A DNA stretch of 64,000 bases, taken from an uncultured cyanobacterium (lineage in GTDB: Bacteria > Cyanobacteriota > Cyanobacteriia > Cyanobacteriales > CAWCAG01). The position numbers and the translations under genes were made by a program. The notes under the pieces were generated by a model. The model saw only the letters and a program-made list of their open reading frames with translations. It did no database searches and had not been told where the DNA came from. The stretch's first letter is position 1, and each line of letters starts with the position of its first letter. The stretch spans positions 39,085 to 103,084 of the forward strand of contig CAWCAG010000003.1 in assembly GCA_963793425.1 (NCBI GenBank), read 5' to 3'. Shown one piece after another: positions 10,566-53,824 of this stretch.

Positions 10566-10650
10566 CTGTTAGCTGTTAGCTATTCCCTACAGCCTACGGC
10601 AACGCATCCGCGAAACGCCAACCCTATTCCCTGTTCCCTGTTCCCAAAAA

Positions 10651-11997: not shown

Positions 11998-12080
11998 ATG
12001 ATTGATACTTAGATAACTCTACTATTGTCGCAGACTAAATTAATAACTATTTGAACCTACCCATTTATCACTTTTTACCA

Positions 12081-20615: not shown

Positions 20616-21095
20616 TTACCCCACCCAAAAATAAATCCCAGCAAGTGATAACCAAACAGGAGTTAGTTGACGAAAGAACAAACTTAGAACTAAAGTCAAA
20701 ATCAAAGCCCCTACATGAGCATGAAGGTCAAAGATTAGCCTCCCAGAAACCTCTCTAACTCCATTCCATTTAGCCTGCTTCTTACTTTTGAAATGGTTAA
20801 TTATCTCTCGTTCCAACAGCAACAATTTCTCTTGTGAGTAGCTAGGAAGAGGAAGATAATAGAGCCTTGCCCAAGGTAGTAATTGAGCTTTAGACAGCTT
20901 GTGATGTGTGTAGAATCCGCTACTATTCCAACGAGCATTAAGGTTGCTACTCATTCCCACATAAACTACTTCCCAGAAAGAAATTAATAGATAAATTCCT
21001 GGTTCTTTAGGTAACTGCTTTCGCTTCCATAACCAGACAGATTTGAGTGAAAGTCTGGGGTGTTTTAACTTGTACCTGGTTATCGCATTTAACAT
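20616..21095 (-). CDS. GIY-YIG nuclease-domain protein with C-terminal hydrophobic anchor (copy A)
   Basis: PGIY...VYVGMSSNLNARW...HHK, a conserved Glu helix and a hydrophobic C-terminus; paralog at 53345. Confidence 0.75.
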   Translation of the reverse strand: MLNAITRYKLKHPRLSLKSVWLWKRKQLPKEPGIYLLISFWEVVYVGMSSNLNARWNSSGFYTHHKLSKAQLLPWARLYYLPLPSYSQEKLLLLEREIINHFKSKKQAKWNGVREVSGRLIFDLHAHVGALILTLVLSLFFRQLTPVWLSLAGIYFWVG

Positions 21096-21163
21096 TTATG
21101 TTCATTCCCTCAAACAAAAGCAGCAGAATTTCAGTCTGCTGCTTTATTACCAGTTATTTGCTA

Positions 21164-23371
21164 TCACCGCTTAACGGCAGTACTACGGCTAAAGGTCTTT
21201 TGCTGACAATTAGAGTTAAGGCAGTAAAAACGTGTTTTACCTCTGGGTTTAGTATTTCCGCTACCACAACTAGGGCAATGATATTTAATAGTATCTTGGA
21301 CATCAGACTGCCTGGACAGACTACCGCCTATAGGGAAATCTGTCCGAAATTCTGTCGGGTCAGACATCTCTCTACTAGTAAGTGCTTCAGGATTTACACC
21401 TTCTATCGCTTGTCCGAGTTGGGCAGCGCTTGGACACTTAAATTCGTTGCTACGTTCTTGAGCTAAACTAACAGTATCATAATCAAAAGAATAGCTATCT
21501 AGGCTAGGTAGAAAGAATAGCTTTGGTGAGCGCTCATCTGCAACTAAAACGAGACGGTATTCTTTGGCTTCATTGCCAATTAGTTTGTTTTGATTGATTA
21601 TCCACTCTTCTATATCTTCTAAGGTTGAACCTATCTTTTCTATGTTTTTGTTGCCGAGCTTTTTACCGTACATATCAACATATTCCCTAATCATCTTCGC
21701 TCCAAAGACAATCTCAGTAAAAAGGGTGTTTCTGTCGTTATTGGTGAAGCCTGGTAATACTTTGGTGTTAACTGATTGCCCAGCGATTATGAAGCCCATG
21801 TTAGTGTGGTGAGCTTGTTTTAAACAGGTTTTGAATTTCTCTCCTAACTCTTTGGGGTTACTAGCAGACATGAGGGAATTATCAAATTCATCCCATACCC
21901 ACAAATCAAAGATTTCTTTACGGTAAGCTACGTTCTTTTCTCTATATTTCCATTCTTTTTCAAAGTCAACAAAAGATTGGTGGGAAGCTTCCCAAGTCCG
22001 ATAATGCAAGAAGGGGTCTAGGGGATAGTTTACGTCTTTTTCACTACCATCTCGACCAGGATAGCTCACCTTGATGTTCATCAAAGGGACTTTCCTACCA
22101 GTTGGTTTGTTGGCGACTTTACCACCAATTTTTAACAGGTGAGAAACTAAGACGATGATGGTTGGGCTTTTGCCACTACCAGGTTTAGCTATTAACCTGA
22201 ACCTGTAAGACTGGTTTTCTAGGTACTGTAGAAATTCTTCAGGAGTACCTACTAAATCTTTAATGCTGTCTTGGGTTAGTGCTGGAAGTACCCGAAATGA
22301 GACAACTAAAAGAGCCGATAGTGGTGACTTCTCAAACTTAGTGATTTTATGGATTCCTAAATGTTGAGTCAATCGTTCCTGCTGGCTCTTGATAAAGCTC
22401 AAGATGGCTTCCGGGGAGTGTTTACTTGAGTAGCTAAAGCCAACGCTACTAATCCCGTTGTAATCGCCTTTAAGCCCTTCTAGCTTTAAAGGAATGGTCT
22501 GTTTAGATAAATCCCAAACTTCACGAGCAAATGCCCCTCCGAGTTTAATAATTGGGTCTAATGAGTCTTTGGGGTAATCAGGTTCTAGTAACTCACCATC
22601 TTTTTCTCTTTGTAGGAACTGGATTTGAGTTTCTCGCAGTTTGATAATCTTTCTTAAAGCAAGGGATTCTTCGTTAAATTGATGCCTGAATTTGTGTAGC
22701 AGTTCGTTATAGTTCTCTGCTGCCTGTCTACATCCTTGGGTCTTTAAACGTACCTCATCACGGCATTTGAGAATGATTCGCCGATACTCAGCGTCTAAAG
22801 AGCGCTGCTCCTTGAGCAAATTAAAGTCCTCATGACAAATCTGCTGAATATTTGTTTGCTTGATACGGGCTACTTCTGAGGCAATTTCTTCACTCAAGTC
22901 TTCTTCGTATTTCTTCGCCCATTCGGTAAGCTCAGAGTTTAAAGAGTCTATTTTTTCTTGGTTAGAGGCTATCGCCCGCTTTAGTTTCTCAATGTTAAAT
23001 TTCAGATTATCAATTTGCTGAGTCTGTACATTAGCGAATAACCCTACTTGTTCTAATTTCTTTTTCTTACCTTGGAGTTGAGCTTTGTGATACTTTAAAT
23101 CCCCTAAAAGCTCCTCATTTTTCATCTCTAGTCTGTAGAGCCTATTTAACTCTATTTTCTTCTCAGCTAGCGCCCTATCAACCTTAGAAAACTTTTTGGT
23201 AGCACGCTCATCCATTAAAAAACTAGCTATACCCGCAGCAGGTAATGCCCCTAATACAGAAGCCGCCGCTATTTTCCCAGGAGAGGTAGTTACTGCTGCT
23301 CCAAACAGAAAACCGATGGCGGCACTACAAGAAATACCGCCAATTGTTAGAATTAAATCTTCTTTTTTCAT
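21164..23371 (-). CDS. Membrane-anchored coiled-coil P-loop ATPase with C-terminal zinc ribbon, possibly FtsK/HerA-like (copy A)
   Basis: Two N-terminal hydrophobic segments, long coiled coil, AKPGSGKS, WVWDEFD, IIAGQS, CPSCGS...C....C. Confidence 0.75.
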   Translation of the reverse strand: MKKEDLILTIGGISCSAAIGFLFGAAVTTSPGKIAAASVLGALPAAGIASFLMDERATKKFSKVDRALAEKKIELNRLYRLEMKNEELLGDLKYHKAQLQGKKKKLEQVGLFANVQTQQIDNLKFNIEKLKRAIASNQEKIDSLNSELTEWAKKYEEDLSEEIASEVARIKQTNIQQICHEDFNLLKEQRSLDAEYRRIILKCRDEVRLKTQGCRQAAENYNELLHKFRHQFNEESLALRKIIKLRETQIQFLQREKDGELLEPDYPKDSLDPIIKLGGAFAREVWDLSKQTIPLKLEGLKGDYNGISSVGFSYSSKHSPEAILSFIKSQQERLTQHLGIHKITKFEKSPLSALLVVSFRVLPALTQDSIKDLVGTPEEFLQYLENQSYRFRLIAKPGSGKSPTIIVLVSHLLKIGGKVANKPTGRKVPLMNIKVSYPGRDGSEKDVNYPLDPFLHYRTWEASHQSFVDFEKEWKYREKNVAYRKEIFDLWVWDEFDNSLMSASNPKELGEKFKTCLKQAHHTNMGFIIAGQSVNTKVLPGFTNNDRNTLFTEIVFGAKMIREYVDMYGKKLGNKNIEKIGSTLEDIEEWIINQNKLIGNEAKEYRLVLVADERSPKLFFLPSLDSYSFDYDTVSLAQERSNEFKCPSAAQLGQAIEGVNPEALTSREMSDPTEFRTDFPIGGSLSRQSDVQDTIKYHCPSCGSGNTKPRGKTRFYCLNSNCQQKTFSRSTAVKR

Positions 23372-23547
23372 TGTTTTTTAGCCCCTAGTGATAACAGGGG
23401 CTACTCCTTGATTACACCAAATCAACTCATCAAAAACCAAATAAAAAGTCAACGAGAATTTCTCAAACCAAAAGTACCTCTAGCCTTAACCTTTACCCTT
23501 TACCCCTTCCCCTTTCTTCACCCGTCAATCGAAAATTGACAAACAGA

Positions 23548-24210
23548 TCACCCATACTCACCTAACTTCTTTTGAAAAAGCTCCAATTCACCATCCAACT
23601 CATTGAGTTTGGTTTGGCTATCTTCTAGTTGATTAACCTGAATCTGTAACTCCAGGGCTAACTGCCCTTTGCTGATGGCGTTAGAGGCTATATCTTTGTA
23701 AGTTTTGGCTCTATTGAGGTCGTAGGCTATCGCTGCTTGTTTAGTGCCTTCTATATCGCTCTGTAGCCCGATATAATTACCTTTTGATTGCTCAATAGTA
23801 CGTTGGGTCGAAATGGCTGTGTTGAAAGCTTTGGCTCTGTCTCCAATAGCTCCATAAATGCTATTGTCGAGCTTGTATTTCTGGCGATGTAAGTCAACGG
23901 CATAGTTAGCCATCTCGTATTTGGTAGAGGCTTTGCTGTAAGTAGCTTTTGTTACTCCAGGAAGGCTCTCCGGAGGATTGAGCGGGTCATCAACCTCATA
24001 GTCTTTTAAAGGAAATTCAGGGGTATTAAATGAGGCATCAGCTAAATTAAATTCTGAAATACCTGGTATTTCGACCTTTCCAGATTTGATTATCTCTTCT
24101 GTTTTGAAAGGCGCTTTCCCTCGTCTCACTTCTTTAGTGCCTTGTCTAGTCAGGGTATTAGCTATTTTTGCAGCCCTGGTAGAAATAATTCCTGTAGATT
24201 TTTCAGCCAT
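23548..24210 (-). CDS. Hypothetical 220-aa protein with coiled-coil C-terminus (copy A)
   Basis: Closely similar paralog at 50305..50967. Confidence 0.8.
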   Translation of the reverse strand: MAEKSTGIISTRAAKIANTLTRQGTKEVRRGKAPFKTEEIIKSGKVEIPGISEFNLADASFNTPEFPLKDYEVDDPLNPPESLPGVTKATYSKASTKYEMANYAVDLHRQKYKLDNSIYGAIGDRAKAFNTAISTQRTIEQSKGNYIGLQSDIEGTKQAAIAYDLNRAKTYKDIASNAISKGQLALELQIQVNQLEDSQTKLNELDGELELFQKKLGEYG

Positions 24211-24386
24211 GATTTCCTGTTGCTAATAAGGGTGTTCGCTTTGATCTCAAGTTTGCGATGGCGCTCATCAAGTTCAAAGAGTTTTTGGTCTAGCCATTCC
24301 TCAAATTTGAATTCTTCTAAGCCATCTTCAATCTGCTCTAAGTCAGCTTCAGGAGGGGATTCAGTTGGTTCTGGGAGATTATTCAT
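24162..24386 (-). CDS. Hypothetical 74-aa protein (copy A)
   Basis: Paralog at 50129..50353 with the same overlaps to neighbouring genes. Confidence 0.75.
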   Translation of the reverse strand: MNNLPEPTESPPEADLEQIEDGLEEFKFEEWLDQKLFELDERHRKLEIKANTLISNRKSWLKNLQELFLPGLQK

Positions 24387-24612
24387 CTAGTCCCTCCCGT
24401 TTACGCTGTAATGCCTGTATTTTCTGGTCGAGTTCTGCTTGTTTTTTTTCTAAGGATGATAGGGATTCATCAAGCCAGTCTGGTGGTTGTGTCATTGCTT
24501 CTACTTCTTGATTGAGTTGTTGAAGTCTTTGCTCTAACTCTGGGGTTGTGGGAGGGGATGAATAAAGGTCCTCTAGCCTCTTTTTGTTTTCATTCAGTTC
24601 TTCTGGGGTCAT
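24379..24612 (-). CDS. Hypothetical 77-aa coiled-coil protein (copy A)
   Basis: Paralog at 49903..50136 (MTPEELNE...). Confidence 0.75.
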   Translation of the reverse strand: MTPEELNENKKRLEDLYSSPPTTPELEQRLQQLNQEVEAMTQPPDWLDESLSSLEKKQAELDQKIQALQRKREGLDE

Positions 24613-24689
24613 AATTAACGCTCTTGAGCTAATAGCTAGGGTTTACTGAGTATTCAAAACCAAACATATATCTCCCCAACTGTTTTTCT

Positions 24690-24848
24690 TTAGCGTCCAG
24701 CCCCTCTACACTGAGACGGTTGGGCTGTTAGAGGCACTGAGTCACTATTATTAGCCCAAAATACTGTTATTACCGCTATTCCTAGAGCTAGGGCTATACA
24801 GCCTACCCCGTATAACGTTTTAATGCCTGGGTATTTTCTTTTATTCAT
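24690..24848 (-). CDS. 52-aa signal-peptide microprotein ending CRGAGR, PatX/PatS-like (copy A)
   Basis: Translated by hand: MNKRKYPGIKTLYGVGCIALALGIAVITVFWANNSDSVPLTAQPSQCRGAGR*. The C-terminus is conserved with 49704..49826 through synonymous changes. Confidence 0.8.
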   Translation of the reverse strand: MNKRKYPGIKTLYGVGCIALALGIAVITVFWANNSDSVPLTAQPSQCRGAGR

Positions 24849-24885
24849 TGCTATGATTAGGTTTGAGTGAGTTAAGTTAATGAGC

Positions 24886-25080
24886 TTACGCTGCTTGTTT
24901 TGCTTGCTCAGAGGTGGCAGTTAGTTTAGAGCTAGCTGTCACCAATTTTTCTTGGTACTCTGCTATGTGGTAGAGCAGTTCCTCGATAGCGGGGTCGTCG
25001 TAGAAGCGTTGTAACTCTTGAAGTTGGGCTATTACTTCTCCGAGCTTGATAGAAGTCGTGTTAATTAGGTTTGTGTTCAT
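24886..25080 (-). CDS. Hypothetical 64-aa helical protein (copy A)
   Basis: Paralog at 49468..49665 (EELL.HIA.YQ.KLVT...QAA). Confidence 0.75.
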   Translation of the reverse strand: MNTNLINTTSIKLGEVIAQLQELQRFYDDPAIEELLYHIAEYQEKLVTASSKLTATSEQAKQAA

Positions 25081-25105
25081 TTCAGGCTAAAGTGATGGTT
25101 CGTTT

Positions 25106-25225
25106 TTAGTTTTTCGGTTGAACATTATTAATCTGCTGATTAGTACTTCCATCAATGAAATAGCCACCTGCTATCCCTACACCCAATAGCAATAGAGTAA
25201 GGAGCAGCATGATGATTACTTCCCC
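25106..25225 (-). CDS. -1-frame transmembrane extension of 25216..25977, or a separate small ORF
   Basis: GEVIIMLLLTLLLLGVGIAGGYFIDGSTNQQINNVQPKN* overlaps the GK* end of the upstream gene; homologous to 49274..49375. Confidence 0.65.
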   Translation of the reverse strand, partial: GEVIIMLLLTLLLLGVGIAGGYFIDGSTNQQINNVQPKN

Positions 25226-25977
25226 ACTAAGGAATTGAGGCTTTTTAACATTTCCCCCATCTGGTCAAGGGTCGCTTGGTTGGTATCCTTAGAAGCTTGG
25301 GCTTGTTGGCTCATCTCATGAAGTTTGGCAAGCTGGGTAATTTGGTTTTGTGCTGCCTGTGTTTGAGCGGCTACTTGGTTCGCTTCCTCTATCTGTTGAT
25401 GCGTCCTCGCTGTTGCTACCTCGATTAAGTCTTGCAGCTTGTCGTTGATTGATTTTTGTTTCAATATTTCGGGGGTGTCAACCTGTACTATTTCTGCATT
25501 TAGTACTGGTAGTTCTGGTAGGTCTGGGACTTCGATTTGATAGGGGTTAATAGCTTCTGAACACTCGCTTTCGGGGATTTGCTGTGCTTCAGGGTAAGTC
25601 GCTAAATGCTCACTAATTGGTAGATTTTCTATAAATTCCTTGGGGCTAACTCCAGATTCTTTTTGCTCATTCATTAGTTGAACCAAAGTGTTGAAGCCAT
25701 TCTCACTAATTTTTCTGCCGATATAGAACTCATACCCACTAGTTTCTAGGGGTTTAAGCCAGGTTTTGGTTAGATTCTGGCGAGTGGTTTGTAAAAAACT
25801 GGCAACTGCACTTTTGGTTGCGGGAAATTCAGGCAGACTTTGGTTCCCTCTAGTTACGTTTTTGGTTGCATCTGGTTGCTTGCAACTGGGACGTAACCCG
25901 CTTGTAACTGTTGCATCTTGGTTGCAGTTTCCAGTTTCAAATTCTTTAAATTCATTCACATCAATCTCTTTAGCCAT
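25216..25977 (-). CDS. Putative HTH and coiled-coil protein, first gene of the operon (copy A)
   Basis: TKSAVASFLQTTRQNLTKTW HTH-like segment; Q-rich coiled coil ending GK*; distant paralog at 48528. Confidence 0.7.
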   Translation of the reverse strand: MAKEIDVNEFKEFETGNCNQDATVTSGLRPSCKQPDATKNVTRGNQSLPEFPATKSAVASFLQTTRQNLTKTWLKPLETSGYEFYIGRKISENGFNTLVQLMNEQKESGVSPKEFIENLPISEHLATYPEAQQIPESECSEAINPYQIEVPDLPELPVLNAEIVQVDTPEILKQKSINDKLQDLIEVATARTHQQIEEANQVAAQTQAAQNQITQLAKLHEMSQQAQASKDTNQATLDQMGEMLKSLNSLVGK

Positions 25978-27055: not shown

Positions 27056-30000
27056 ATGATTTACTCTCCTAGCAAGCAAAGGTTAATTCCTACTAACCGC
27101 TTTAACCCTTGCCCCGTATGCTCCGACATCTCTGGCGATTGTCGCCACGGTGAAAACGAACTAATCCTTTGCCATACATACATAGATGGAGGGGTAGATG
27201 CCCCTGGCTATGAGTTCAAAAAGTCCGGGAAATTGGGAAATTGGGGAGTTTATGCCCCACCCAGAGAAGCTAAAGACTGGTTGCCCAAAGAACTCTGGAT
27301 TAGACAGCAGCAGCAATTAAGAGCCAAGCTTGAAGCTGACAAACGCCGCCAGTACCAAGAGGCTCTATCAGTCTTCGAGCGGGATAAAGCGATTAGGAAA
27401 ATTGCTAAGTCATTGGGCTTGAAGGCTGAACATAGAGAAGACTTAAAGCACCGTGGTTTAAATGATGACCAGATTGAGCTTGGACTATTCTTCTCAATTA
27501 CCCCTTATGCTCCTGTCCCCTCTGATATCCCCTCTAATCTTCCTGGAATAGGTCACGGGGGTAAATTACTTTCTAATTCCTCTGGTTACGCCTGTGTAGC
27601 CTTCGACAATCACAGAAAGGCTATTGGGTGGCAAATCAGAGTAGATGGTGCTACAGAAGCTGGCAAGTACCGATGGGCTAAAGGTTTAAAATCTAGCCAC
27701 TTAAAGAATGGGGAACTCCCCTTAACCGTAGTAGGAGAAGATGCCGAAGAAACTAATAGAGTCCATTTAACAGAAGGATTCTTAAAACCCTATATTGCCC
27801 AATCCAAACACGGTGGTAAATGGCTAGGCAGCCCTGGAGGTAACTTCTCTGGCTCTCCAGAACAGTTCAAATTAGCCACAGCCAAAGCTGAAATTGCCAT
27901 CATTTACCCTGACGCTGGAGACGTACTTAACCCCCACGTCATGAAGCGCTGGCGAAACCAAATTGGCTTTGCCCAGAATCGAGGCTTGAAAGTCCTAATC
28001 GCCTGGTGGGGTCAAGTTAGTAAAGAATTATGGCTAGATATTGATGAGATAAAGCCGGGGCAAACGGTTAAGTACCTATCCCCAGAAGAGTTCTATCAAC
28101 TATCTCAAATACAGAAGAAGAAAAAAGAAGATTGGGATAGGTGGATTAAATCCCGTCGGCTATCCCCCCATACCAGACAAAAGCAACGTTTTGTTAAGAT
28201 TTCTCCCTTAGCTGAAGCAAAGGCAATTTTAGTAAAATCTGGCACTGGTACAGGAAAAACCCATGAAATAAAAAGAATTATTAAGGAGAATCCCAACAAA
28301 GGGTTTTTAAGTATTGGTTACAGAAATGGGCCATTGCTTCAATTTTGTATTGAGTCGGGATTTTATCATCTTCAATCAGAGTTAAAGAACCAGGATGAAT
28401 ATGCTCTTATTCATGACCCTAGAAGCTGTATCGCTTTTTGCCTACACTCAATTCTCCATTTTTCCCCTGAAGATTTTGATGACAGGATATTAATTCTTGA
28501 TGAAATTGTTAGTATCTTACGTTCACTCGCTAAAGATAAAAATCTTCGGTTTAAGTCCAGGGTTAAAGCTCTTCTCATTGAAGCACTAACGAGGGCATCA
28601 AAGATATATTGCCTTGACGGGCATCTGACCAATAAAGAAGTTAGACTAATTGGCTCTGTTCTTGGAGAAGAGGCCCTCACTTCGGTTATTGAAAATAGTT
28701 TCACTGGCCACAGACCACAAACAAAATTCATCACAAACAGCAGAAACGAGAACGGGGAACTAGTAGAGCCGGACAAAAGCGAAGTTCTCAAAGCCATTCT
28801 CAATCTCCCAGAAGGAGTCAATATTGCTGTTTGTAGTGACAACCAGAAGGAGCTAGAAGCCCTTGATAACAAACTTAAAGCTAGGGGCATAAGAACTTTC
28901 AGGCTCGACTCAACTAAAGCCGGAACCAAACAAGCTAGGCAATTTTATGCCGATAGTCCCGGTTATCTGGTTAAGCATAGGATACAAGTTTTGCTGTATT
29001 CCCCTAGTGGTGAAGCTGGCTTAAACATTGATATTAAAGGGTATTTTAGTGAAATATATGCTCTATTTTATGGTGTGCTTTCAACTAACCAACAGATGCA
29101 GCTAATTGCTAGGGTCAGAGATAAGGACGCAGCCCTCATCGTCGTACCTGCGACCAGGGCAGTTAGCAACGACGAGGTATCCGATTCTTTTATTCCTGAT
29201 GAAGTCAAACAAGCTTGGGAAGAATATGCGATTCTCAATGGTGAAGCTGTATTAGATGGCGTGGACTCTAAAGAACAATACCTTAAGCTCATGCAACAGA
29301 TGATGAGTGCTTACGATGATGAGTTTTATGTCTATGAATGCCAACTTAGAGCGGCTGAGAATTACGAACGCCAAAACCTAAAACAGTGCCTGCGCTACGC
29401 TCTAGAAGATTCTGGCTACCCTGTTACCGACGTTATTGTCCAGAAATATAATGAGGTTACTAAAGGTATAGCCGAGGAGAAAAAAGCAGTGGAACAAGCC
29501 AATGCCACTCAAGAGTTTCATTCTCCATATATGACAACCGAGGAAGCTAACGAAAAGTCTCGCGATATCTCCGCAACAGTTGAGCAAAAGGCTGCTGTTA
29601 AAAAGCGTAGGCTGTTAGACAGACTGCCGGGAATCGAAGAGAAAACTATCATCACCAGCGAGACTGTTGAGGCTACTAATTCTCAGACAGGGGAAGTAGA
29701 AGAGAAAGAGGTAAAAGTTGAAAAACCTGCTTTTTCTCCTGAAACTATCTTGAGGCTTGAAGACAAAAGTAAAAGGCTAATCTCTAAACAAGAACTCCGG
29801 TTTTTTGTTGATCACCCAGAAATGGCCCTTCTGTTGGACAGACACAAACTCTTTCAGAAATTCAACTTCTTTACTGACCCTGAATCTAATGGTTACGGTT
29901 TGGGAGTATCCCCAATTGAGTTTAGGTCGAAAACTCTTCTGGTTAAAACCCTCATTGAAATGGGTATCAAGGATTTCCTAGAGCCGGGAACCTCTTGGAA

Positions 30001-30493
30001 CCAAAAAGACCAAAGAGTCCTTGATTTCCAGCGAAAAGGTAGAAAGAACTGGCGAAAACTTAGGTTCAAGGTAGGCAAATATACACCTGTTCAATACCTC
30101 AATAAAGCTATCCGGATGCTTGGGTTCCAGATTCAGAGACGCAAGGTTAAAGGGGAGAGGACATATTCAATTAAGGATGAACTTGGTTCTCTTGAATCAG
30201 TCGTTTATCAATGTGTAACACAGAGGATTGAGGATAAAGTGTCTCAATCTTCCCCAGACTTTCAATTCATCCTTAATCGAATTAAACCCCCTATACCAGA
30301 GGACGTTGAAGATGCCGCAGATATTCTTGCCCAGATAAACACCTTTGAAGACTTCCAGGAAATTCTCTACCCCACAGGGGAACTCGCTCAAGGCTTCAGC
30401 GCTAATCTAATGAGAAAAGCTACAAAGCTCTTAGAGAAGAGTAAACAAGCGATGATTGCTCAATGGCTCTGGACAATTAAAGCCCCTACTTAA
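27056..30493 (+). CDS. Plasmid replication primase-helicase (zinc finger, Toprim-like and SF2 helicase domains; CyRepA-like)
   Basis: NPCPVC...DC...LCH, HLTEGFLKP, YPDAGD, KSGTGTGKT, LILDE, QLIARVR. Confidence 0.8.
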   Translation: MIYSPSKQRLIPTNRFNPCPVCSDISGDCRHGENELILCHTYIDGGVDAPGYEFKKSGKLGNWGVYAPPREAKDWLPKELWIRQQQQLRAKLEADKRRQYQEALSVFERDKAIRKIAKSLGLKAEHREDLKHRGLNDDQIELGLFFSITPYAPVPSDIPSNLPGIGHGGKLLSNSSGYACVAFDNHRKAIGWQIRVDGATEAGKYRWAKGLKSSHLKNGELPLTVVGEDAEETNRVHLTEGFLKPYIAQSKHGGKWLGSPGGNFSGSPEQFKLATAKAEIAIIYPDAGDVLNPHVMKRWRNQIGFAQNRGLKVLIAWWGQVSKELWLDIDEIKPGQTVKYLSPEEFYQLSQIQKKKKEDWDRWIKSRRLSPHTRQKQRFVKISPLAEAKAILVKSGTGTGKTHEIKRIIKENPNKGFLSIGYRNGPLLQFCIESGFYHLQSELKNQDEYALIHDPRSCIAFCLHSILHFSPEDFDDRILILDEIVSILRSLAKDKNLRFKSRVKALLIEALTRASKIYCLDGHLTNKEVRLIGSVLGEEALTSVIENSFTGHRPQTKFITNSRNENGELVEPDKSEVLKAILNLPEGVNIAVCSDNQKELEALDNKLKARGIRTFRLDSTKAGTKQARQFYADSPGYLVKHRIQVLLYSPSGEAGLNIDIKGYFSEIYALFYGVLSTNQQMQLIARVRDKDAALIVVPATRAVSNDEVSDSFIPDEVKQAWEEYAILNGEAVLDGVDSKEQYLKLMQQMMSAYDDEFYVYECQLRAAENYERQNLKQCLRYALEDSGYPVTDVIVQKYNEVTKGIAEEKKAVEQANATQEFHSPYMTTEEANEKSRDISATVEQKAAVKKRRLLDRLPGIEEKTIITSETVEATNSQTGEVEEKEVKVEKPAFSPETILRLEDKSKRLISKQELRFFVDHPEMALLLDRHKLFQKFNFFTDPESNGYGLGVSPIEFRSKTLLVKTLIEMGIKDFLEPGTSWNQKDQRVLDFQRKGRKNWRKLRFKVGKYTPVQYLNKAIRMLGFQIQRRKVKGERTYSIKDELGSLESVVYQCVTQRIEDKVSQSSPDFQFILNRIKPPIPEDVEDAADILAQINTFEDFQEILYPTGELAQGFSANLMRKATKLLEKSKQAMIAQWLWTIKAPT

Positions 30494-42995: not shown

Positions 42996-45900
42996 TTAGC
43001 CAGGGGCTTCAATCGCCGTGAGCCACTGATTAACTAAAGCTTGATGTGCCTTATCGAGTAACTTAATAGCCTGCTTCATTAAGTAGGAGGTGAAACCTTC
43101 AATCAAGTGACCGGCCGGGTAGAAAATCTCTCGAAAATCTTCCATTGACTTAAACGCCCCCAGAATCTCAGCCATTTCTTTAGCCCGTTTTCGCTCAATG
43201 CGCTTCTGCTCAAGCTCTGCGAGTTCTTCAGCTAATCTCTTTTCATCTCGTTCTAACCAAACCTGAAAGACTTCTTCTCTCTCATCAGCAATAGGGATCG
43301 CATGACCAAATTCATCAAGCAGAGGTTTATTACTTCCCTGTTCTGCTCGAACATAATCAACCACAACAGGGCCATAAACTTGCTCTTGATGCCCCGCGCT
43401 GCCTTCTTTCCTAAGTGCAGGCATATTTAACCCCAGCTTACGGAGAAACTGCTTAAAGATAACTATAGGAGAACTATTAGGGTTAATCTTAATCCCCAAC
43501 CATTCCTGAATACCCTTAGCTCCCAAGACACAGTTTTCTTTAAACTCAATTAAATCGGGGTCACTGTTACGGTGTTCTGCTTTGTTAGAGTACCTAAGTT
43601 CAGTAAATCCGACCGCATCAAGAGTTAACACTTTGCCAGATTTCAACCCTCGGTTAAAGTCAGGAGAGAAGTAGCGACCTTCATAGACTTTACTTTGGGC
43701 TTTCCTTCTATCCCTGTGGGGTAGGTGCTTACGACCTGTTCTTAACAAGTAGTCTGTGTTCCACTTACTGTAGACTCCTTGCTCATCAAGCTTAACCAGA
43801 GAGGGGGTAACTTCAATACCATACTTACTCTTGATCTGGGCTTTTTTAACCTGTCTCTGTTGTTGAGGTGTTTTGGTTTTCTGGTCTTCAAGCTGCTGTA
43901 ACTCCTCAACGGATAAGTCTTGTTCTTCTGGGACTTGGTGACAATAAGCCTCGTAATTGGTGTCCCTAACTTGTTTGATTTCCTTCTTCAATTCTATGGC
44001 GAGGTCATCATCCTTGCCAACATTTCTGATTGAGTAGCCTTCTGAAGTTAACCCAGCAACAATAGAAGCCCTGTAAGTCTTCATCTCTAAATTAATTCGC
44101 GCCGCAAATTGACACCAAGCTTTGAGTGCAGCGCCGCTAACTTCAGATAATTCCTCCCCTTCAAAGAATCCCCCAGCTTGGGCGAGTAAGGCTAAATGCT
44201 GCTTAGTTTGATTCTGTTGGCTAGCGTAAACCGCAGATTCAGAAGTTTTCCTATTACCCACCCAGTTCATACCTGTTTTGCTGCCCCAGAAGTAACGGGG
44301 AACATCTTCACGTACTCTCCTCAATGCCTGTCTGACACTATTTTCTGTTTGGACTCCATAAGCAATACACCAAACACTATCAAAGTGTCCACGAATATTA
44401 ATACTTACTCCGGTTTCAATAACAGGAGAGGCTAGGACGACATCGTAATATTTAAGCAACTCATTAAGCTTGTCGATACCTCCATAAGCAGGATGGTTGG
44501 GGTCAGCTAAAGACTCCCTGTCAATCCTCAAGACTTTTAGTTCTGGGTTTAATTCGAGTAGGCGTGCTTCTAAGGTTTTAGTCCCCCAAGTAGATTTATC
44601 TTTCTGCCCAGAAACACACACCATCGCTTTACCACCAGCAAGTATGTGCTTTTCTAAATCAGCGACCAGATGACCAGGGTTAGTTTCTGTGTAATTGTAA
44701 AGTTTTGTTTTCTTAGTTCTTTGGTCATCGGCGATGATAGTTAGGGTTCTAACTTTTCTTCCTAAAATGGCTTGGTAAAAATTAACGGTCAAATCATCCA
44801 GGTCAGCACTAGAAAGAATGATTTTGCCTCTAGTAGCGATAATATAGCGAAGAATTTCCCCCAACCTCTGGAAAATGGGAACTCGTTTTTTACCTACTTC
44901 GGTTTTGGAGTCTAGTAAGTGCCACAAAGACTGGTCAGCCTCATCAAGAATGACCCAGGCCCCATAAAGACTTTCTAATTCAAGTTCATCTCTGGCGACT
45001 TTAAGTAATGAATCAAAACATAATACTCTTCCATAGAATCTGGCTAGTTCGTCGGGGTTTTTGTCATTGACATTGGCTAAATAGAAGCGTTTCGCCTGTT
45101 CGTTATTTAAGGTTTGGCGGTGGGTCAAACTGAGGGTTTTACCACCGTGATATTGGTGTTCTGCTATCTTTTTGGCGAGAGCTTCTGTTTTTCCTGCTCC
45201 TTTAGGGGCGCGGATGAGAATGAGATTATTCTTTCTGAAGTTAGGTAAGTTTTCTAAATAGGGTGATTCGTCGCTCAGAACGGCTGTGTAGTCAGCTTTT
45301 ATGGTTAAGCGCTTCTGATGTCTTATCCAGAAAGAATGTAACTCCTCAGAAGCTTCTACCCTCTCCTCGAAAGCTTCTAGCCCCTGGTTATAGATAAAGT
45401 CATCACAGCCCTTACCAAGTTCTCCATTCCAGCGAATGACGGAAACATCACAGCCCAGGCGTTCTAATAATTTCCCTGTTGTATGAGTGGCAGCTGCCAC
45501 ATTATTGATAGTTGCTGCCTTAGAATCTTCGTCTAGGGCGAAATAGATTTTTCTGCCTCCCGTGGCGAAAATCTCTAGTTCTGGGATGAGGAAAGCTGGC
45601 CCTATTGCCTGGTTATATTCATCTTTTGGTCTGCGATAACCGTTATAGATACCAGGTAGTCCAATTGTTAAGAAGCCTTGAGAGATGAGACAAGCTGTTT
45701 TTTTTGCTCCTTCGGTGATGATGAGAGGAATTTGGGGATGGTCTATGGCCCACTGCCAAAATCCCAGAGCTTGCCCATCTTCACATTCTTGGTGGGCTTT
45801 GTGTCCGTCCGCAGGTGACGGTTGGGTCGCATCGGCAGAATTAACGTTTTCTGGTAGGGGTAGGTCAAAGCGATCTCCAATTGATTCCCAAGTCCCTAAG

Positions 45901-46262
45901 TCAACCAGTGGGCAGAAGGTTCTGGTCTTAGTTTTGATTGGTGTCTCATACTTGATCTGCTTCTGTTTGCCGTGGTCGTTATAGCTGCGGGGCTTATCGG
46001 GTTTAAAGGCTCCCCAATTACTCTCTTCTCTGGTTAAGGGGTCGATGGTTTTACACCAGAAGCCGCCTTTTTCTGTGTGGGCGTATTTGTTTAGATAGCG
46101 ATTTCTTAACCTGCCGTCGTTTCTCCTTTCTGAGCGAGGGAGGAAACTGGTTAGTCTTTCTGTTGGTTCTATTCCTTCTAGGGATTTGAAGTTGAGACTG
46201 GCGATTTCAGGGGAAATGGCGCTTTGAGTTAGTTCTTGGTAGTGCTTCGGGGTTAGGCTCAT
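42996..46262 (-). CDS. Plasmid replication protein, DUF3854 (Toprim-like) plus helicase, CyRepA1-like
   Basis: IITEGAKK, FALDED, KGCDD, RAPKGAGKT, ILDEAD, QALRRVR. Confidence 0.85.
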   Translation of the reverse strand: MSLTPKHYQELTQSAISPEIASLNFKSLEGIEPTERLTSFLPRSERRNDGRLRNRYLNKYAHTEKGGFWCKTIDPLTREESNWGAFKPDKPRSYNDHGKQKQIKYETPIKTKTRTFCPLVDLGTWESIGDRFDLPLPENVNSADATQPSPADGHKAHQECEDGQALGFWQWAIDHPQIPLIITEGAKKTACLISQGFLTIGLPGIYNGYRRPKDEYNQAIGPAFLIPELEIFATGGRKIYFALDEDSKAATINNVAAATHTTGKLLERLGCDVSVIRWNGELGKGCDDFIYNQGLEAFEERVEASEELHSFWIRHQKRLTIKADYTAVLSDESPYLENLPNFRKNNLILIRAPKGAGKTEALAKKIAEHQYHGGKTLSLTHRQTLNNEQAKRFYLANVNDKNPDELARFYGRVLCFDSLLKVARDELELESLYGAWVILDEADQSLWHLLDSKTEVGKKRVPIFQRLGEILRYIIATRGKIILSSADLDDLTVNFYQAILGRKVRTLTIIADDQRTKKTKLYNYTETNPGHLVADLEKHILAGGKAMVCVSGQKDKSTWGTKTLEARLLELNPELKVLRIDRESLADPNHPAYGGIDKLNELLKYYDVVLASPVIETGVSINIRGHFDSVWCIAYGVQTENSVRQALRRVREDVPRYFWGSKTGMNWVGNRKTSESAVYASQQNQTKQHLALLAQAGGFFEGEELSEVSGAALKAWCQFAARINLEMKTYRASIVAGLTSEGYSIRNVGKDDDLAIELKKEIKQVRDTNYEAYCHQVPEEQDLSVEELQQLEDQKTKTPQQQRQVKKAQIKSKYGIEVTPSLVKLDEQGVYSKWNTDYLLRTGRKHLPHRDRRKAQSKVYEGRYFSPDFNRGLKSGKVLTLDAVGFTELRYSNKAEHRNSDPDLIEFKENCVLGAKGIQEWLGIKINPNSSPIVIFKQFLRKLGLNMPALRKEGSAGHQEQVYGPVVVDYVRAEQGSNKPLLDEFGHAIPIADEREEVFQVWLERDEKRLAEELAELEQKRIERKRAKEMAEILGAFKSMEDFREIFYPAGHLIEGFTSYLMKQAIKLLDKAHQALVNQWLTAIEAPG

Positions 46263-48527: not shown

Positions 48528-49283
48528 ATGGCTAAAAACTTTGATACGCAAGATTTTCAGGTTATGGCAGATATAGACTGCCAACATGAAACCGAGGAAA
48601 TGATGGCAACAGACATTACAAACATTGCAATAGATAACGAAATGAACATCAGCAGCAACCAAGAAAAAACCTATACAGTCAAGGAACTCTGCAACGAGTT
48701 AGGTAAGGCAGAACGGACTGTTAGGGGATGGATTAAGACCGTTAAAGATACTTATTCTTGGCTTGATGAATCTGAAATTAGTTCTAAGCAAGGGCGTACA
48801 GTCTATTACACGGCGTTTACTCTTACTCAGCTTGAAGACATCAAAACTCACCTTGATGGTGGAGATACGCTTGATAGCTGGGTACAAACGGTGTCTATGG
48901 TAATAAGTCCAGAGAACCAAAAAGACTCCACAGAGGATATTGTCGAGCCTGCAAATGGGGCTTTGGCTACATACAACCCCAGTACCTTAGCTACTACTCC
49001 TAAATATGTTCCGGCTGAGTTAGTTACATATGACTTAGAACCGTTAGAGCAGCCATCTTTACTCGACCAACTCACCGAGCTAGCCGACACAGCCCAAGCA
49101 GAAGCAGAAGCAGAAGTAGAAAAAACACGCCAAGCTTCTGAAAACTCTAAAGTAGTACGCACGAAACTAACGCAATACGTGCAAGCGAAACAGACAGCAG
49201 AAGTGGCCAAACTAGATCGAGAAAAGCAGCAGCAAGAAGACGCAAAACTACTCTCCCAATTACAGCAGTTAATGGGAAAGTAG
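48528..49283 (+). CDS. HTH and coiled-coil protein, first gene of the operon (copy B)
   Basis: YTVKELCNELGKAERTVRGWI HTH; ends MGK*. Confidence 0.75.
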   Translation: MAKNFDTQDFQVMADIDCQHETEEMMATDITNIAIDNEMNISSNQEKTYTVKELCNELGKAERTVRGWIKTVKDTYSWLDESEISSKQGRTVYYTAFTLTQLEDIKTHLDGGDTLDSWVQTVSMVISPENQKDSTEDIVEPANGALATYNPSTLATTPKYVPAELVTYDLEPLEQPSLLDQLTELADTAQAEAEAEVEKTRQASENSKVVRTKLTQYVQAKQTAEVAKLDREKQQQEDAKLLSQLQQLMGK

Positions 49284-49375
49284 TCATCGGTCTAATCGTT
49301 GCTCTAGCAGTAGTTCTGACTGGAGTAGGGATAGGCTATTTCATCACTAACAACCAAATACATCATGGTCAATAA
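49274..49375 (+). CDS. -1-frame transmembrane extension of 48528..49283
   Basis: G GGA AAG heptamer directly before TAG; the -1 frame reads GKVVIGLIVALAVVLTGVGIGYFITNNQIHHGQ* and has no ATG/GTG/TTG of its own. Confidence 0.65.
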   Translation, partial: GKVVIGLIVALAVVLTGVGIGYFITNNQIHHGQ

Positions 49376-49467
49376 AAGAACAGACCCAAAGCTGGTTTTA
49401 GCTATTAGCTATTAGCTTTTAGCTTTTAGCTTCTGAATCATTTTTTTCTGATAACGCTCTAACGAAG

Positions 49468-49665
49468 ATGACCTCAATTAAACCACCAACTCCTTTGAGT
49501 ATTGCCCTCGGTAAGGCGATACACGAACTGCAAAAACGCCAACACCAAAACCCAGACAAAGAAACTGAGGAACTGCTTAATCACATAGCTACTTACCAAC
49601 AAAAATTAGTGACAGTTAGGTGTGAACTAACTGCCACAAATGAGAAAAAGACACAAGCTGCTTAA
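49468..49665 (+). CDS. Hypothetical 65-aa protein (copy B)
   Basis: Paralog of 24886..25080. Confidence 0.75.
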   Translation: MTSIKPPTPLSIALGKAIHELQKRQHQNPDKETEELLNHIATYQQKLVTVRCELTATNEKKTQAA

Positions 49666-49703
49666 AACTCGTTGACTCAAACTCATAGAACCCAATCATA
49701 GCA

Positions 49704-49826
49704 ATGAAAACCAGAAAAATCATAGCCTTAGCCCTCGTAGCCCTCCTGACATTTACCCTAGTCACTTTGGTCAACACCTCACCCCTTACAGCCCAAGCAT
49801 CCCAGTGTAGAGGCGCTGGAAGGTAA
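49704..49826 (+). CDS. 40-aa signal-peptide microprotein ending CRGAGR, PatX/PatS-like (copy B)
   Basis: Translated by hand: MKTRKIIALALVALLTFTLVTLVNTSPLTAQASQCRGAGR*. Same AATCATAGCA context before the ATG as copy A. Confidence 0.82.
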   Translation: MKTRKIIALALVALLTFTLVTLVNTSPLTAQASQCRGAGR

Positions 49827-49902
49827 AGAAAAACAGCTAGAAGTACTAATAACTGTACAGCTAGCTGTTGTCGCAGACTTAACTAATAAGGTGATAACTG
49901 TT

Positions 49903-50136
49903 ATGACCCCAGAAGAATTAAATGAAAGCAAACAGAGGTTAGAGAAGCTAATTTCATCCCCTCCCACAACCCCAGAATTAGAGCAAAAACTTCAACAACT
50001 CAATAAAAAGGTTGAAGCAATAACACAACCACCAGAGTGGCTCAATGAATCTCTAACATCTCTCGACAAAAAACAAGCAGAACTAGATCAGAAAATCAAA
50101 GACTTAAAGCGCAAACGGGAGGGAGTAGATGAATAA
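49903..50136 (+). CDS. Hypothetical 77-aa coiled-coil protein (copy B)
   Basis: Paralog of 24379..24612; ATG 49903 chosen by alignment. Confidence 0.75.
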   Translation: MTPEELNESKQRLEKLISSPPTTPELEQKLQQLNKKVEAITQPPEWLNESLTSLDKKQAELDQKIKDLKRKREGVDE

Positions 50137-50353
50137 TCTACCAGAACCAACCGAATCCCCTCCAGAAGCCGACTTAGAAATGATTGAGGATGGCTTAGAA
50201 GAGTTCAAATTTGAAGAATGGCTTGAAGGAGAACTAAAAAAACTTGATGAGCGCCACCGCAGATTAGAGATCAAAGCGAACACCCTTATTAGCAACAGAA
50301 AATCATGGCTGAAAAATCTACAGGAATTATTTCTACCAGGGCTGCCAAAATAG
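50129..50353 (+). CDS. Hypothetical 74-aa protein (copy B)
   Basis: Paralog of 24162..24386. Confidence 0.75.
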   Translation: MNNLPEPTESPPEADLEMIEDGLEEFKFEEWLEGELKKLDERHRRLEIKANTLISNRKSWLKNLQELFLPGLPK

Positions 50354-50967
50354 CGAATGCCCTTAATAAGCAAGGGACTAAAGAAGTGAGGCGAGGGAAA
50401 GCGCCTTTCAAAACAGAAGAGATAATCAAATCTGGAAAAGTCGAAGTACCAGGTATTTCGGAATTTAACTTAGCTGAAGCCTCGGTTAACACCCCGGAAT
50501 TTCCTTTAAGCGACTACGAGGTTGACGACCCGCTCAATCCTCCTGATAGCCTCCCTGGGGTGACTAAAGCTACCCATAGCCAAGCCTCAACCAAATACGA
50601 AATGGCTAACTATGCCGTTGACTTACATCGCCAAAAATACAAGCTCGACAATAACATTTATGGAGCTATTGGAGACAGAGCCAAAGCATTTGACACAGCC
50701 ATTTCGACCCAACGCACTATTGAGCAATCAAAAGGTAATTACATCGGGCTACAGAGCGATATAGAAGGCACTAAACAAAGTGCGATCGCCTACGACCTTA
50801 ATAGAGCTAAAACTTACAAAGATATAGCCTCAAACGCCATCAGCAAGGGGCAGTTAGCCCTGGAGTTACAGATTCAGGTTAACCAACTAGAAGATAGCCA
50901 AACCAAACTCGATGAGTTGGACGGTGAATTGGAGCTTTTTCAGAAAAGACTAGGTGAGTATCAGTAA
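50305..50967 (+). CDS. Hypothetical 220-aa protein (copy B)
   Basis: Paralog of 23548..24210. Confidence 0.8.
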   Translation: MAEKSTGIISTRAAKIANALNKQGTKEVRRGKAPFKTEEIIKSGKVEVPGISEFNLAEASVNTPEFPLSDYEVDDPLNPPDSLPGVTKATHSQASTKYEMANYAVDLHRQKYKLDNNIYGAIGDRAKAFDTAISTQRTIEQSKGNYIGLQSDIEGTKQSAIAYDLNRAKTYKDIASNAISKGQLALELQIQVNQLEDSQTKLDELDGELELFQKRLGEYQ

Positions 50968-51085
50968 TTAGCTTAGCTTCCAGTCGACGGGGAAGGGGAA
51001 AGAATCGACATATTTGGTTTTTGATAACCGGATTTTGTGTAGTCAGGGAGTAGCCCCTGGTGATAACGAGGGGCTAAAGATAACA

Positions 51086-53285: not shown

Positions 53286-53344
53286 TAGGACTGTTTAATT
53301 AGCCTTACGGTTTATTACTGTGGAGCTTTTATTGAAGAAAAGTA

Positions 53345-53824
53345 ATGTTAACTCAATTCAGATTAAAACATCCCAGGCTAGCGCTAAATTCCGTTAGCCT
53401 TAACAAGCGCCGAAAACTTCCCCACGAACCAGGAATCTACCTTTTGATTTCTTTTTGGGAGGTAGCTTACGTAGGTATGAGTACTAATCTATTCAATCGG
53501 TGGAATGGATATCACCATAAGATTGAATATGCTCAACTATTACCCCTCCCAAGACTTTATTATCTTCCCCTTAATGAGTGGTCAGATAAACGATTAAAGA
53601 AGCTAGAAACTAAAATTAAACACCATTATCAAGCTAAGAATCAGGCTAAATGGAATGACATTACTGTAATCCCTAAACATTATATTTGGGAACTCTGGCG
53701 AGATTTAGTGGTGGTCGTAGTAATGATTATGATGAGTTTGCTAATGAGACAGATGATAGCTATCTGGCTTATTTTTGGTGGTTTCTATTTTTGCTATGAG
53801 GGGCGAAAAAGACCAAGAGAATAA
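53345..53824 (+). CDS. GIY-YIG protein with C-terminal hydrophobic anchor (copy B)
   Basis: EPGIYLLISFWEVAYVGMSTNLFNRWNGYHHK; hydrophobic tail. Confidence 0.75.
   Translation: MLTQFRLKHPRLALNSVSLNKRRKLPHEPGIYLLISFWEVAYVGMSTNLFNRWNGYHHKIEYAQLLPLPRLYYLPLNEWSDKRLKKLETKIKHHYQAKNQAKWNDITVIPKHYIWELWRDLVVVVVMIMMSLLMRQMIAIWLIFGGFYFCYEGRKRPRE

Follow-up and report, generated by a model that had tools for sequence, protein, structure and literature searches.

A candidate PatX-like propeptide gene in the replication-proximal operon of cyanobacterial plasmids

Three copies of a small gene under purifying selection

The stretch of DNA analysed here (the window) comprises 64,000 nucleotides (nt) of contig CAWCAG010000003.1 from an uncultured cyanobacterium of the order Cyanobacteriales (assembly GCA_963793425.1) and corresponds to G000:C3:39085-103084, where G000 denotes the genome under study. 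At 24690..24848 on the minus strand lies a microprotein gene (copy A) whose 52-amino-acid (aa) product, MNKRKYPGIKTLYGVGCIALALGIAVITVFWANNSDSVPLTAQPSQCRGAGR, starts with MNKRK and ends with PLTAQPSQCRGAGR at the stop codon. A second copy (copy B) occupies 49704..49826 on the plus strand and encodes 40 aa, MKTRKIIALALVALLTFTLVTLVNTSPLTAQASQCRGAGR, with the C-terminal end PLTAQASQCRGAGR, and a whole-assembly search recovered a third on the plasmid-like contig C2 (G000:C2:23670-23792), which ends with SVTAQASQCRGAGR. In copy A the basic N-terminus leads into a hydrophobic segment of ~24 residues and then a polar tail, SVPLTAQPSQCRGAGR, while copy B runs from MKTRK through an 18-residue hydrophobic core to NTSPLTAQA-SQCRGAGR (the hyphen marks a putative cleavage site). 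By a hydropathy criterion all copies possess the basic n-region and hydrophobic core, and all three carry RGAGR preceded by Cys, within the common ending QCRGAGR. The ORF listing and the sequence thus bear out the original prediction, which had described a 52-aa open reading frame (ORF) with a basic N-terminus, hydrophobic core and a tail ending in CRGAGR.

The ORF at 24690..24848 is a genuine coding sequence under purifying selection, as can be seen from the balance of synonymous and nonsynonymous change. Over their last 14 codons, copies A and B differ by five synonymous changes (cct/ccc, cta/ctt, tct/tcc, ggg/ggc and cgc/agg) and a single nonsynonymous one (ccg/gca, Pro/Ala), so that by the Nei-Gojobori method the proportion of differences is 0.51 at synonymous sites (pS) and 0.07 at nonsynonymous sites (pN). 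Across all 40 codons, copy B and the C2 copy show 15.7 synonymous differences in 32.2 sites and 5.3 nonsynonymous differences in 87.8 sites (pS 0.49, pN 0.06). The N-terminal halves of A and B are dissimilar, and the last six to eight residues (SQCRGAGR) are the part under selection. The codon comparison made in the original prediction, its statement that the signal regions had diverged freely and its proposal of selection on the peptide all hold.

The three copies exceed what chance would give. A scan of the window for RG.GR gave four occurrences, two of which abut a stop codon and are copies A and B; in six frames of the 5.28-Mb genome RG[STA]GR occurs 20 times, abutting a stop codon only in the three copies. 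Among 29,063 genomic ORFs of 30-100 aa, eight have both a hydrophobic N-terminus and a loose RG..R(R) tail, three of them being the copies described here. In copies B and C2 the AQA-S junction, read by eye, would fit the -3/-1 rule for signal peptidase. Two other kinds of targeting signal were considered and rejected. By our reading, copy A has a Cys in its hydrophobic segment (...YGVGC...) but no lipobox ahead of it, and Cys is absent from this segment in B and C2, which disposes of a lipoprotein, while a PEP-CTERM-like sorting signal would place a hydrophobic segment behind the PEP-rich run and none is there.

An accessory gene of a plasmid backbone operon

The fixed position of the microprotein gene is directly upstream of, and co-oriented with, a small coiled-coil gene, a 220-aa gene and a gene for a 735-aa ATPase. 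The backbone module that holds copy A (module A, 20616..25977, minus strand, delimited from ORFs and family scans) consists of genes for products of 253 aa (25216-25977) and 64 aa (24886-25080), the microprotein gene, and genes for a 77-aa coiled coil (24379-24612), a 74-aa protein (24162-24386), the 220-aa protein (23548-24210), the 735-aa membrane P-loop ATPase (21164-23371) and a GIY-YIG protein (20616-21095), all on the minus strand. In the ATPase, membrane helices at the N-terminus are accompanied by a coiled coil, Walker motifs and, at the C-terminus, a zinc ribbon. Module B (48528..53824, plus strand), which holds copy B, repeats this row in the opposite orientation: 251 aa, 65 aa, microprotein, 81 aa, 74 aa, 220 aa, a split ATPase and GIY-YIG (53345-53824). 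The right parts of the two modules are ~93% identical at the 220-aa protein and the left parts are far more diverged. Module B is possibly defective, since its ATPase is split into two ORFs (51014-51454 and 51927-53285, plus strand) with a gap of ~470 nt. The module on contig C2 keeps only part of the 220-aa gene. No family assignment from Pfam, NCBIfam or PHROGs explains the operon; matches of the ATPase profile to PDB sequences are confined to the coiled-coil and zinc-ribbon regions, and the AlphaFold model of the ATPase (mean pLDDT, the predicted local distance difference test score, of 50) is too poor to use.

The microprotein alone retrieved only itself in a single-sequence protein search and neighbouring genes were therefore used as anchors. 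A blastn search of the region against PLSDB plasmids and a tblastn search of a Nostoc member (P0007) against plasmids gave no match, a related-locus search from the 220-aa neighbour gave no confirmed locus, and the ESM Atlas returned a best score of 0.82 with no named cluster. As the 220-aa protein is found in only 2 of 101 related genomes, the ATPase was taken as the anchor. It is present in 8 of 401 genomes sampled across the phylum, and its profile detects it in 17 of 401 sampled across the order, at 39 loci of a species-representative collection, mostly Nostoc, and on nine closed plasmids (seven Nostoc, one Tolypothrix, one Fischerella), all typed non-mobilizable. The gene order of module A recurs in other genomes and on closed Nostoc plasmids. 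Seven of the eight closed plasmid records H1-H8 are marked linear with a protelomerase near the module, and a CyRepA1 gene is visible in two of the closed-plasmid stretches (L109 and L111). In seven Nostoc records (L107-L113) the whole backbone operon lies on linear-marked plasmids a few kb from the protelomerase, and all genes of the operon on closed Nostoc plasmids are called 'hypothetical' in RefSeq.

Occupancy of the slot was scored by one rule, which asked for a plus-strand ORF 35-80 aa long that is hydrophobic at its N-terminus, lies no more than 3 kb upstream of the ATPase and carries a tail [RK]G x(2-3) [RK][RK]? followed by at most nine residues. Across 65 distinct loci such an ORF is present in 17, absent from 41 and not assessable in 7 that are too short, i.e. 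17 of 58 adequately covered loci (mostly in Nostoc), a census in which at least two of the absences are one contig fetched twice, the truncated L072 is counted as absent and looser relatives of the module are included. The distance from the slot ORFs to the downstream ATPase start is 890-1470 nt, except in C2, where it is 2142 nt. Two of the ORFs carry an annotation as coding sequence (CDS), both in closed linear plasmids of Nostoc. In the congeneric genome G001 the same slot holds a 51-aa ORF, MNTPGIKTLIGVCCIATAIAILVGGIFIAIDANSATANSNSTSQTRGSSRR, 49% identical to copy A, and in other lineages the slot ORFs end at the stop codon with ...STNPPQEDSQPVRGNGRRN, ...PEPHRGQGRR, ...TPLYRGVSRR, ...PHHRGEGRR, ...SQPLHRGGTTRR, ...PKHRGDGRR and ...PYKGQGKRELKG. 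Given the genomic background of 8 in 29,063 ORFs, three being the copies themselves, recurrence in one slot is not due to chance. The microprotein gene is an accessory gene at a fixed position in a replication-proximal backbone operon of CyRepA1-type plasmids.

Contig C3 is, judging by its gene content, a plasmid or a plasmid cointegrate, the latter being suggested by its two replication regions. A CyRepA1-family replication protein gene (27056..30493, plus strand; NCBIfam NF042913, E 4.3e-87, 293 bits, cut-off 200) is divergent from module A, and a second replication-type gene (DUF3854; 42996..46262, minus strand; Pfam PF12965, E 1.6e-46) is divergent from module B, with an insertion sequence (IS) transposase (47487-48485, plus strand; DDE_3, E 2.2e-32) between the two. 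Further DDE_3 IS transposase copies lie at 34576-35688, 62835-63947 and 19224-19850. The contig also encodes three ParA-type ATPases, a relaxase-domain protein, a type I restriction system, several IS transposases and addiction modules of the HEPN/MNT, AbiE and HigA-like kinds. Four DNA sequencing runs from one study, and no RNA run, are listed as containing this stretch.

Directly after the stop codon of copy B there is a stem-loop (49832..49869, plus strand; -19.3 kcal/mol, z -3.65). Comparable hairpins, each lineage having its own stem sequence, lie behind the gene in L064 (4982-5005, z -3.45), L070 (4922-4948, z -3.49) and L051 (4545-4569, z -2.95), so that in 4 of 6 folded loci a stable hairpin begins within ~10 nt of the microprotein stop codon; it is weak in G147 (z -1.5), and copy A has none (z -0.3). 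The hairpin could mark a 3' end or work as an attenuator and in this way separate the peptide gene from those that come after it.

Two further observations concern the surroundings. Two genes upstream of copy A there is a hydrophobic ORF of 34 aa (25106-25210, minus strand), and a dissimilar 35-aa hydrophobic ORF occupies a like place in G001 (L011:6143-6250); the reality of the former is doubtful because the module B strand has no ORF of 30 aa or more there. At 9141-15746 (plus strand) an M50-peptidase-like, an HlyD-type membrane-fusion and a TPS-domain beta-helix protein are encoded in a row beside a 2583-aa Calx-beta protein (1051-8802), a secretion cluster with no relation to the microprotein.

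The microprotein family, the PatX profile and host HetR

The microprotein family is small. A 16-member profile finds 30 database proteins at E<=1, nearly all from Nostoc and every named one a 'hypothetical protein', and with a 37-member profile 16 clusters out of 1.84 billion representatives reach E<=1e-3. One member (P0013) is assigned to Pfam PF28278.1 in precomputed annotation; a local Pfam scan gave no match. The plan of the family is M-K-(F/V)-Y, a hydrophobic run ending in PSLA(S/N), a Pro-, Gln-, Ser- and Glu-rich linker and a tail [H/F/Y]RG x [G/S] R R, and the genes found in the slot share a hydrophobic N-terminus, a polar or Pro-rich linker and the tail [H/Y/C]RGx[G/S]R(R). In the 37-row alignment the invariant residues are M1 and the R and G of 'RG', and an Arg follows the motif in at least 90% of rows. 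The tails are RGQGRR (8/37), RGKGRR (5/37), RGGTTRR (4/37), RGAGRR (3/37), RGAGR in the genome under study (3/37), RGVGRR (3/37), RGQSRR (2/37), RGSSRR (2/37), RGGTNRR (2/37) and, in one member each, RGAGKR, RGNGRRN, RGEGRR, RGVSRR and RGSTTRR.

The closest known counterpart is PatX. PMC12756182 describes PatX of Nostoc PCC 7120 as a small protein with a functional Sec signal whose export is needed for activity, and reports that PatP (Alr1666, a Peptidase_S13 protein) processes it to HRGTGR, which binds HetR with a dissociation constant (Kd) of 88 nM and releases it from DNA. A Pro-rich stretch and a Tyr or His directly before the motif are further PatX features according to PMC5812504. Copies A and B have one or two Pro in their last 14 residues and Cys before RG, so neither of these features is present in them.

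The NCBIfam model NF047413 (heterocyst_PatX, curated cut-off 30 bits) was used as the formal test of PatX identity. It matches 25 of the 37 family members at E<=10, with a best E of 1.7e-5, and the matching members rescanned singly score 9.5-25.5 bits, all below the cut-off, several of the alignments spanning the full model length. For these members no other family is listed beside NF047413, save for L071, where NF047413 comes second in the list. As a positive control, a chromosomal ORF of G147 ~12 kb from hetR (...APVRGSGRRSLMESQRNTYPTV at the stop codon) scores 58 bits. The model gives no match for the RGGT-type members or for two closed-plasmid members, nor does it detect the patX-like ORF on the host's own chromosome. 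This 72-aa ORF (G000:C5:352898-353116; L001:381-599) lies directly upstream of hetR, is conserved in G001 and reads MKRIIAVV...ILAERGSGRFDTGPFQG (ERGSGRFDTGPFQG) up to the stop codon, with a signal-like N-terminus and eight more residues after the motif. Since it too is missed, a blank result with NF047413 in the host lineage says little.

The model also picks up chromosomal proteins with non-canonical motifs. The best match in the host genome, again below the cut-off (26.4 bits), is a chromosomal ORF on the minus strand (G000:C7:547445-547816) with a signal-like segment, SRGDGRREEDERND and ...SRGDGRREEDE..., whose RGDGRR variant is shared with the closed Nostoc plasmid pNPM10, and a chromosomal protein of Cylindrospermum stagnale PCC 7417 (...QPYRGGGRRDFYGLPY) scores 16.6 bits. 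A back-translated HRGTGR pattern had four matches in five genomes, none in a PatX-like ORF.

HetR, the target on which the mimicry idea of the original prediction depends, is encoded by an intact gene in the host (C5:353364-354263, 299 aa). It aligns without gaps to PDB 3qod (E 6.6e-154) and 4hri, and it retains R223, E253, D256, D270 and D278, which are invariant in five aligned HetR sequences; position 254 is T. The host also has Peptidase_S13 genes. The model that misses hetR in G604 (see below) does find it in G000, G001, G147, G183 and G610. A patX gene abutting hetR is reported from a non-heterocystous Leptolyngbya as well, where its function is called 'a mystery' (PMC11298460).

Readings of the gene and comparison with known peptides

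As a whole, the microprotein is best read as a diverged, plasmid-borne PatX-like propeptide giving rise to an exported signal peptide, to which we assign roughly even odds (a probability of about 0.5). The reading stems from the Nostoc counterparts, which have a Sec-type signal, a Pro-rich linker and [H/Y]RGxGRR. We infer export, cleavage, release of a short peptide and a receptor: the basic hydrophobic N-terminus would insert the microprotein into or through the cytoplasmic membrane with its polar tail facing the periplasm, a PatP-type periplasmic peptidase would trim the exported protein to an XRGAGR-type oligopeptide, and this would act as a signal of the PatX/PatS class.

HetR as the receptor of the derived peptide is a more tentative proposition and distinctly less probable than the propeptide reading itself. 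In its favour are the architecture of the precursor, the resemblance of the Nostoc members to NF047413, the contacts available to CRGAGR and the fact that most carriers are Nostocales. In the crystal structure of the HetR hood with PatS6 (PMC4649674), the peptide pairs as a beta strand via its main chain, its two Arg side chains contact E253, D270' and D278', its Ser makes one hydrogen bond to E253, its C-terminal carboxylate lies near R223 and the side chain of its first residue is irrelevant to binding. By analogy, CRGAGR-COOH would keep every one of these listed contacts except that of the Ser hydroxyl. A complex prediction of two HetR hoods with copy A residues 23-52 scored 0.01 against a mark of 0.32 and was not used either way. 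Somewhat less probable again is the proposal that filamentous cyanobacteria harbour plasmids, often linear Nostoc plasmids with a protelomerase, whose replication backbone includes diverged PatX copies and which use the exported RGxGR(R) peptides to tune the HetR/PatX circuit of the host, in which case the non-canonical third residue might make the peptide a weak agonist, an antagonist or a competitor for the PatP peptidase or for peptide import.

A number of observations weigh against a PatX-like signal directed at HetR. The first group concerns the tail. RG[S/T]GR occurs in none of the 37 aligned members; the alignment has Q, K, A, V, E, N, G or S at position 3 and further relatives have D or R, members with S at position 3 have S or T at position 4, one subgroup (RGGT[TN]RR) has an extra residue within the motif, and two relatives carry Lys for Arg (KGQGKR, RGAGKR). 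The missing Ser/Thr at position 3 is suggestive and is no statistical result, as ~10 residues occur there and many rows are close relatives. The second group concerns the window copies themselves. Copies A, B and C2 and the G001 homologue have no match to NF047413 at E<=10. A family hidden Markov model (HMM) built without the G000 copies fails to recover them (copy A E=10 among 59,286 ORFs) and does not recover the chromosomal patX-like ORF either, and hhalign joins the G000/G001 group to the Nostoc group over only seven tail columns (probability 81%); from these results, family membership of the window gene follows from gene position and tail, not overall sequence. In copy A the Pro at -1 of AQP-S and the ~24-residue core may indicate anchoring rather than cleavage. 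Furthermore, the gene is missing from 41 of 58 modules, including the host's own module on contig C4 (220-aa protein 47% identical), which has neither the microprotein gene nor the 64-aa gene, and none of 17 genes checked has the DIF1 motif (TCCGGA) in the 250 nt preceding it, which fits expression from the operon rather than developmental control.

The third group concerns the hosts. No nifD above the cut-off was found in the host, which is presumably non-diazotrophic and without heterocysts, and the effects of PatX in a non-heterocystous Leptolyngbya looked independent of HetR (PMC11298460). A 99%-complete genome, G604, carries a member ending in HRGGTNRR on a 16-kb contig, which may be misassigned; hetR was found there neither by the HetR_C model nor with the full HetR protein, nor in any of the 31 genomes sampled from its family. 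Taken together, the interpretation in the original prediction is partly supported, as far as the membrane-targeting N-terminus, the conserved basic tail, the PatX-like Nostoc members with their sub-threshold NF047413 matches and the hetR of the host go, but it is weakened by the missing RG[S/T]GR, the Lys variants, the lineage in which hetR was not found and the failure of NF047413 to recognise the host's own copies.

Much of the same evidence would suit a part internal to the plasmid, the strongest of the alternatives though still an unlikely one. The microprotein would then be a membrane-anchored or periplasmic accessory of the machine formed by the 220-aa protein and the ATPase, probably for plasmid maintenance or segregation, with its basic Gly-rich tail binding the cell wall or a module protein, its likeness to PatX convergent or ancestral and HetR uninvolved. 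Such a role is in keeping with a gene that always lies in the same co-oriented operon beside a replication gene, lacks a promoter motif of the patS/patX type and occurs in a lineage without detected hetR; Lys for Arg and a free third residue fit a loose electrostatic motif, and the hydrophobic segments of copy A and the G001 form are long enough for an anchor. However, the modules that do without the gene mean that it is no core subunit, the Nostoc forms have short h-regions and PSLA-S-type sites typical, by our reading, of cleaved signals, and it is these forms that match the PatX model; the ATPase, meanwhile, has no family or PDB match beyond its coiled coil and zinc ribbon.

The other role offered in the original prediction, that of a plasmid pheromone, is improbable, and so is that of a plasmid inhibitor peptide. 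Here a C-terminal oligopeptide would be re-imported and sensed by a plasmid regulator, coordinating the operon across plasmid copies or cells, in a manner resembling the peptides of enterococcal conjugative plasmids. The precursor is small with the selected part at its extreme C-terminus, three diverged precursors in one cell share the same mature end, and where a hairpin comes after the gene, as in several lineages, the peptide might be expressed more strongly than the genes downstream. Nevertheless, no receptor of the tetratricopeptide repeat (TPR) or RRNPP type and no oligopeptide permease was seen among the module genes (scanned with Pfam, NCBIfam and PHROGs, several of the proteins having no family) or among 32 other window ORFs (scanned with Pfam). 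The same tails on co-resident plasmids argue against plasmid-specific signalling, and the closed plasmids carrying the module are typed non-mobilizable. The idea is retained as a rival.

Even less likely is a membrane-active toxin of a type I toxin-antitoxin system acting in post-segregational killing, for which a product of 40-52 aa with a single hydrophobic helix and a charged terminus, encoded on a plasmid with many addiction modules, would be suitable, but whose gene would not be expected co-oriented inside an operon, with selection on the polar tail and the hydrophobic part free to vary, or with Nostoc relatives that resemble cleaved secreted peptides. A chance ORF in an intergenic spacer, which the shortness of copy A and its lack of a recognisable Shine-Dalgarno sequence might suggest, is very improbable in view of the pS/pN pattern, the three genomic copies, the syntenic counterparts in 17 loci and the annotation of the gene as a CDS on closed plasmids.

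PatS, PatX and HetN are textbook diffusible inhibitors of a bacterial Turing-type pattern and feature solely as host genes in the literature consulted. If the plasmid peptides act on HetR, a mobile element would be manipulating multicellular development by interfering with a terminal differentiation decision in a multicellular bacterium; if they serve the plasmid machine only, they would make up a modest new family of small exported proteins. A recurrent plasmid family of the same build with systematically different third residues would provide naturally occurring RGxGR variants with which to map the tolerance of HetR, PatP and the importer, and the finding marks an uncharacterised backbone operon common to CyRepA1 plasmids, including linear protelomerase plasmids of symbiotic Nostoc. 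The searchable full-text literature, outside which lies Elhai & Khudyakov 2018, a work that may bear on novelty, yielded no description of the family and no cyanobacterial paper on variant motifs. As to plasmid-borne PatX, the word 'plasmid' occurs three times in the table of one PatX census supplement, of which the two passages available are peptidase rows.

Among known systems, the nearest is PatX of Nostoc/Anabaena PCC 7120 (Asl2332). Both proteins are small (40-77 aa) with an N-terminal hydrophobic segment, of the Sec type in PatX and putatively so here, and each carries its active or selected portion, a basic motif of the RGxGR type, at the C-terminus or close to it. Members from Nostoc add the Pro-rich run (e.g. 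PEPEPVPHRG), the His or Tyr before the motif and the trailing Arg. The microprotein differs from PatX in the third residue, which is Ala here and Q, K, V, E, N, D or G elsewhere and is never Ser/Thr followed by Gly, and in the setting of the gene, which belongs to a plasmid backbone operon without a DIF1 motif rather than to the neighbourhood of hetR.

PatS itself has no signal peptide, and HetN is a large reductase-like protein. With PatS, and with the RGSGR motif found in HetN, the microprotein has in common a pentapeptide of RG, a small residue and GR; in PatS and the microprotein it stands at the end with a free carboxylate, as in the PatS6-HetR hood geometry (PMC4649674). PatS of PCC 7120 is, according to PMC5812504, a peptide of 17 residues with the classic motif ERGSGR, whereas the microprotein has 40-52 aa, a hydrophobic N-terminal segment and the ending QCRGAGR.

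The precursors of enterococcal pheromones offer a parallel in design, with a tiny plasmid ORF, loss of a signal-like N-terminus and a signal that would consist of the final 7-8 residues; they differ in that no cognate receptor or import genes were found here and in that the host is a diderm cyanobacterium. Finally, the chromosomal RGxGRR proteins (the C7 ORF of the host and the Cylindrospermum protein) resemble the microprotein in their signal-like N-terminus, polar or Pro-rich linker and third residue other than Ser/Thr, and depart from it in a C-terminal extension past the motif. As NF047413 picks up these non-canonical chromosomal proteins as well, PatX-like proteins with a free third residue occur on both chromosomes and plasmids.

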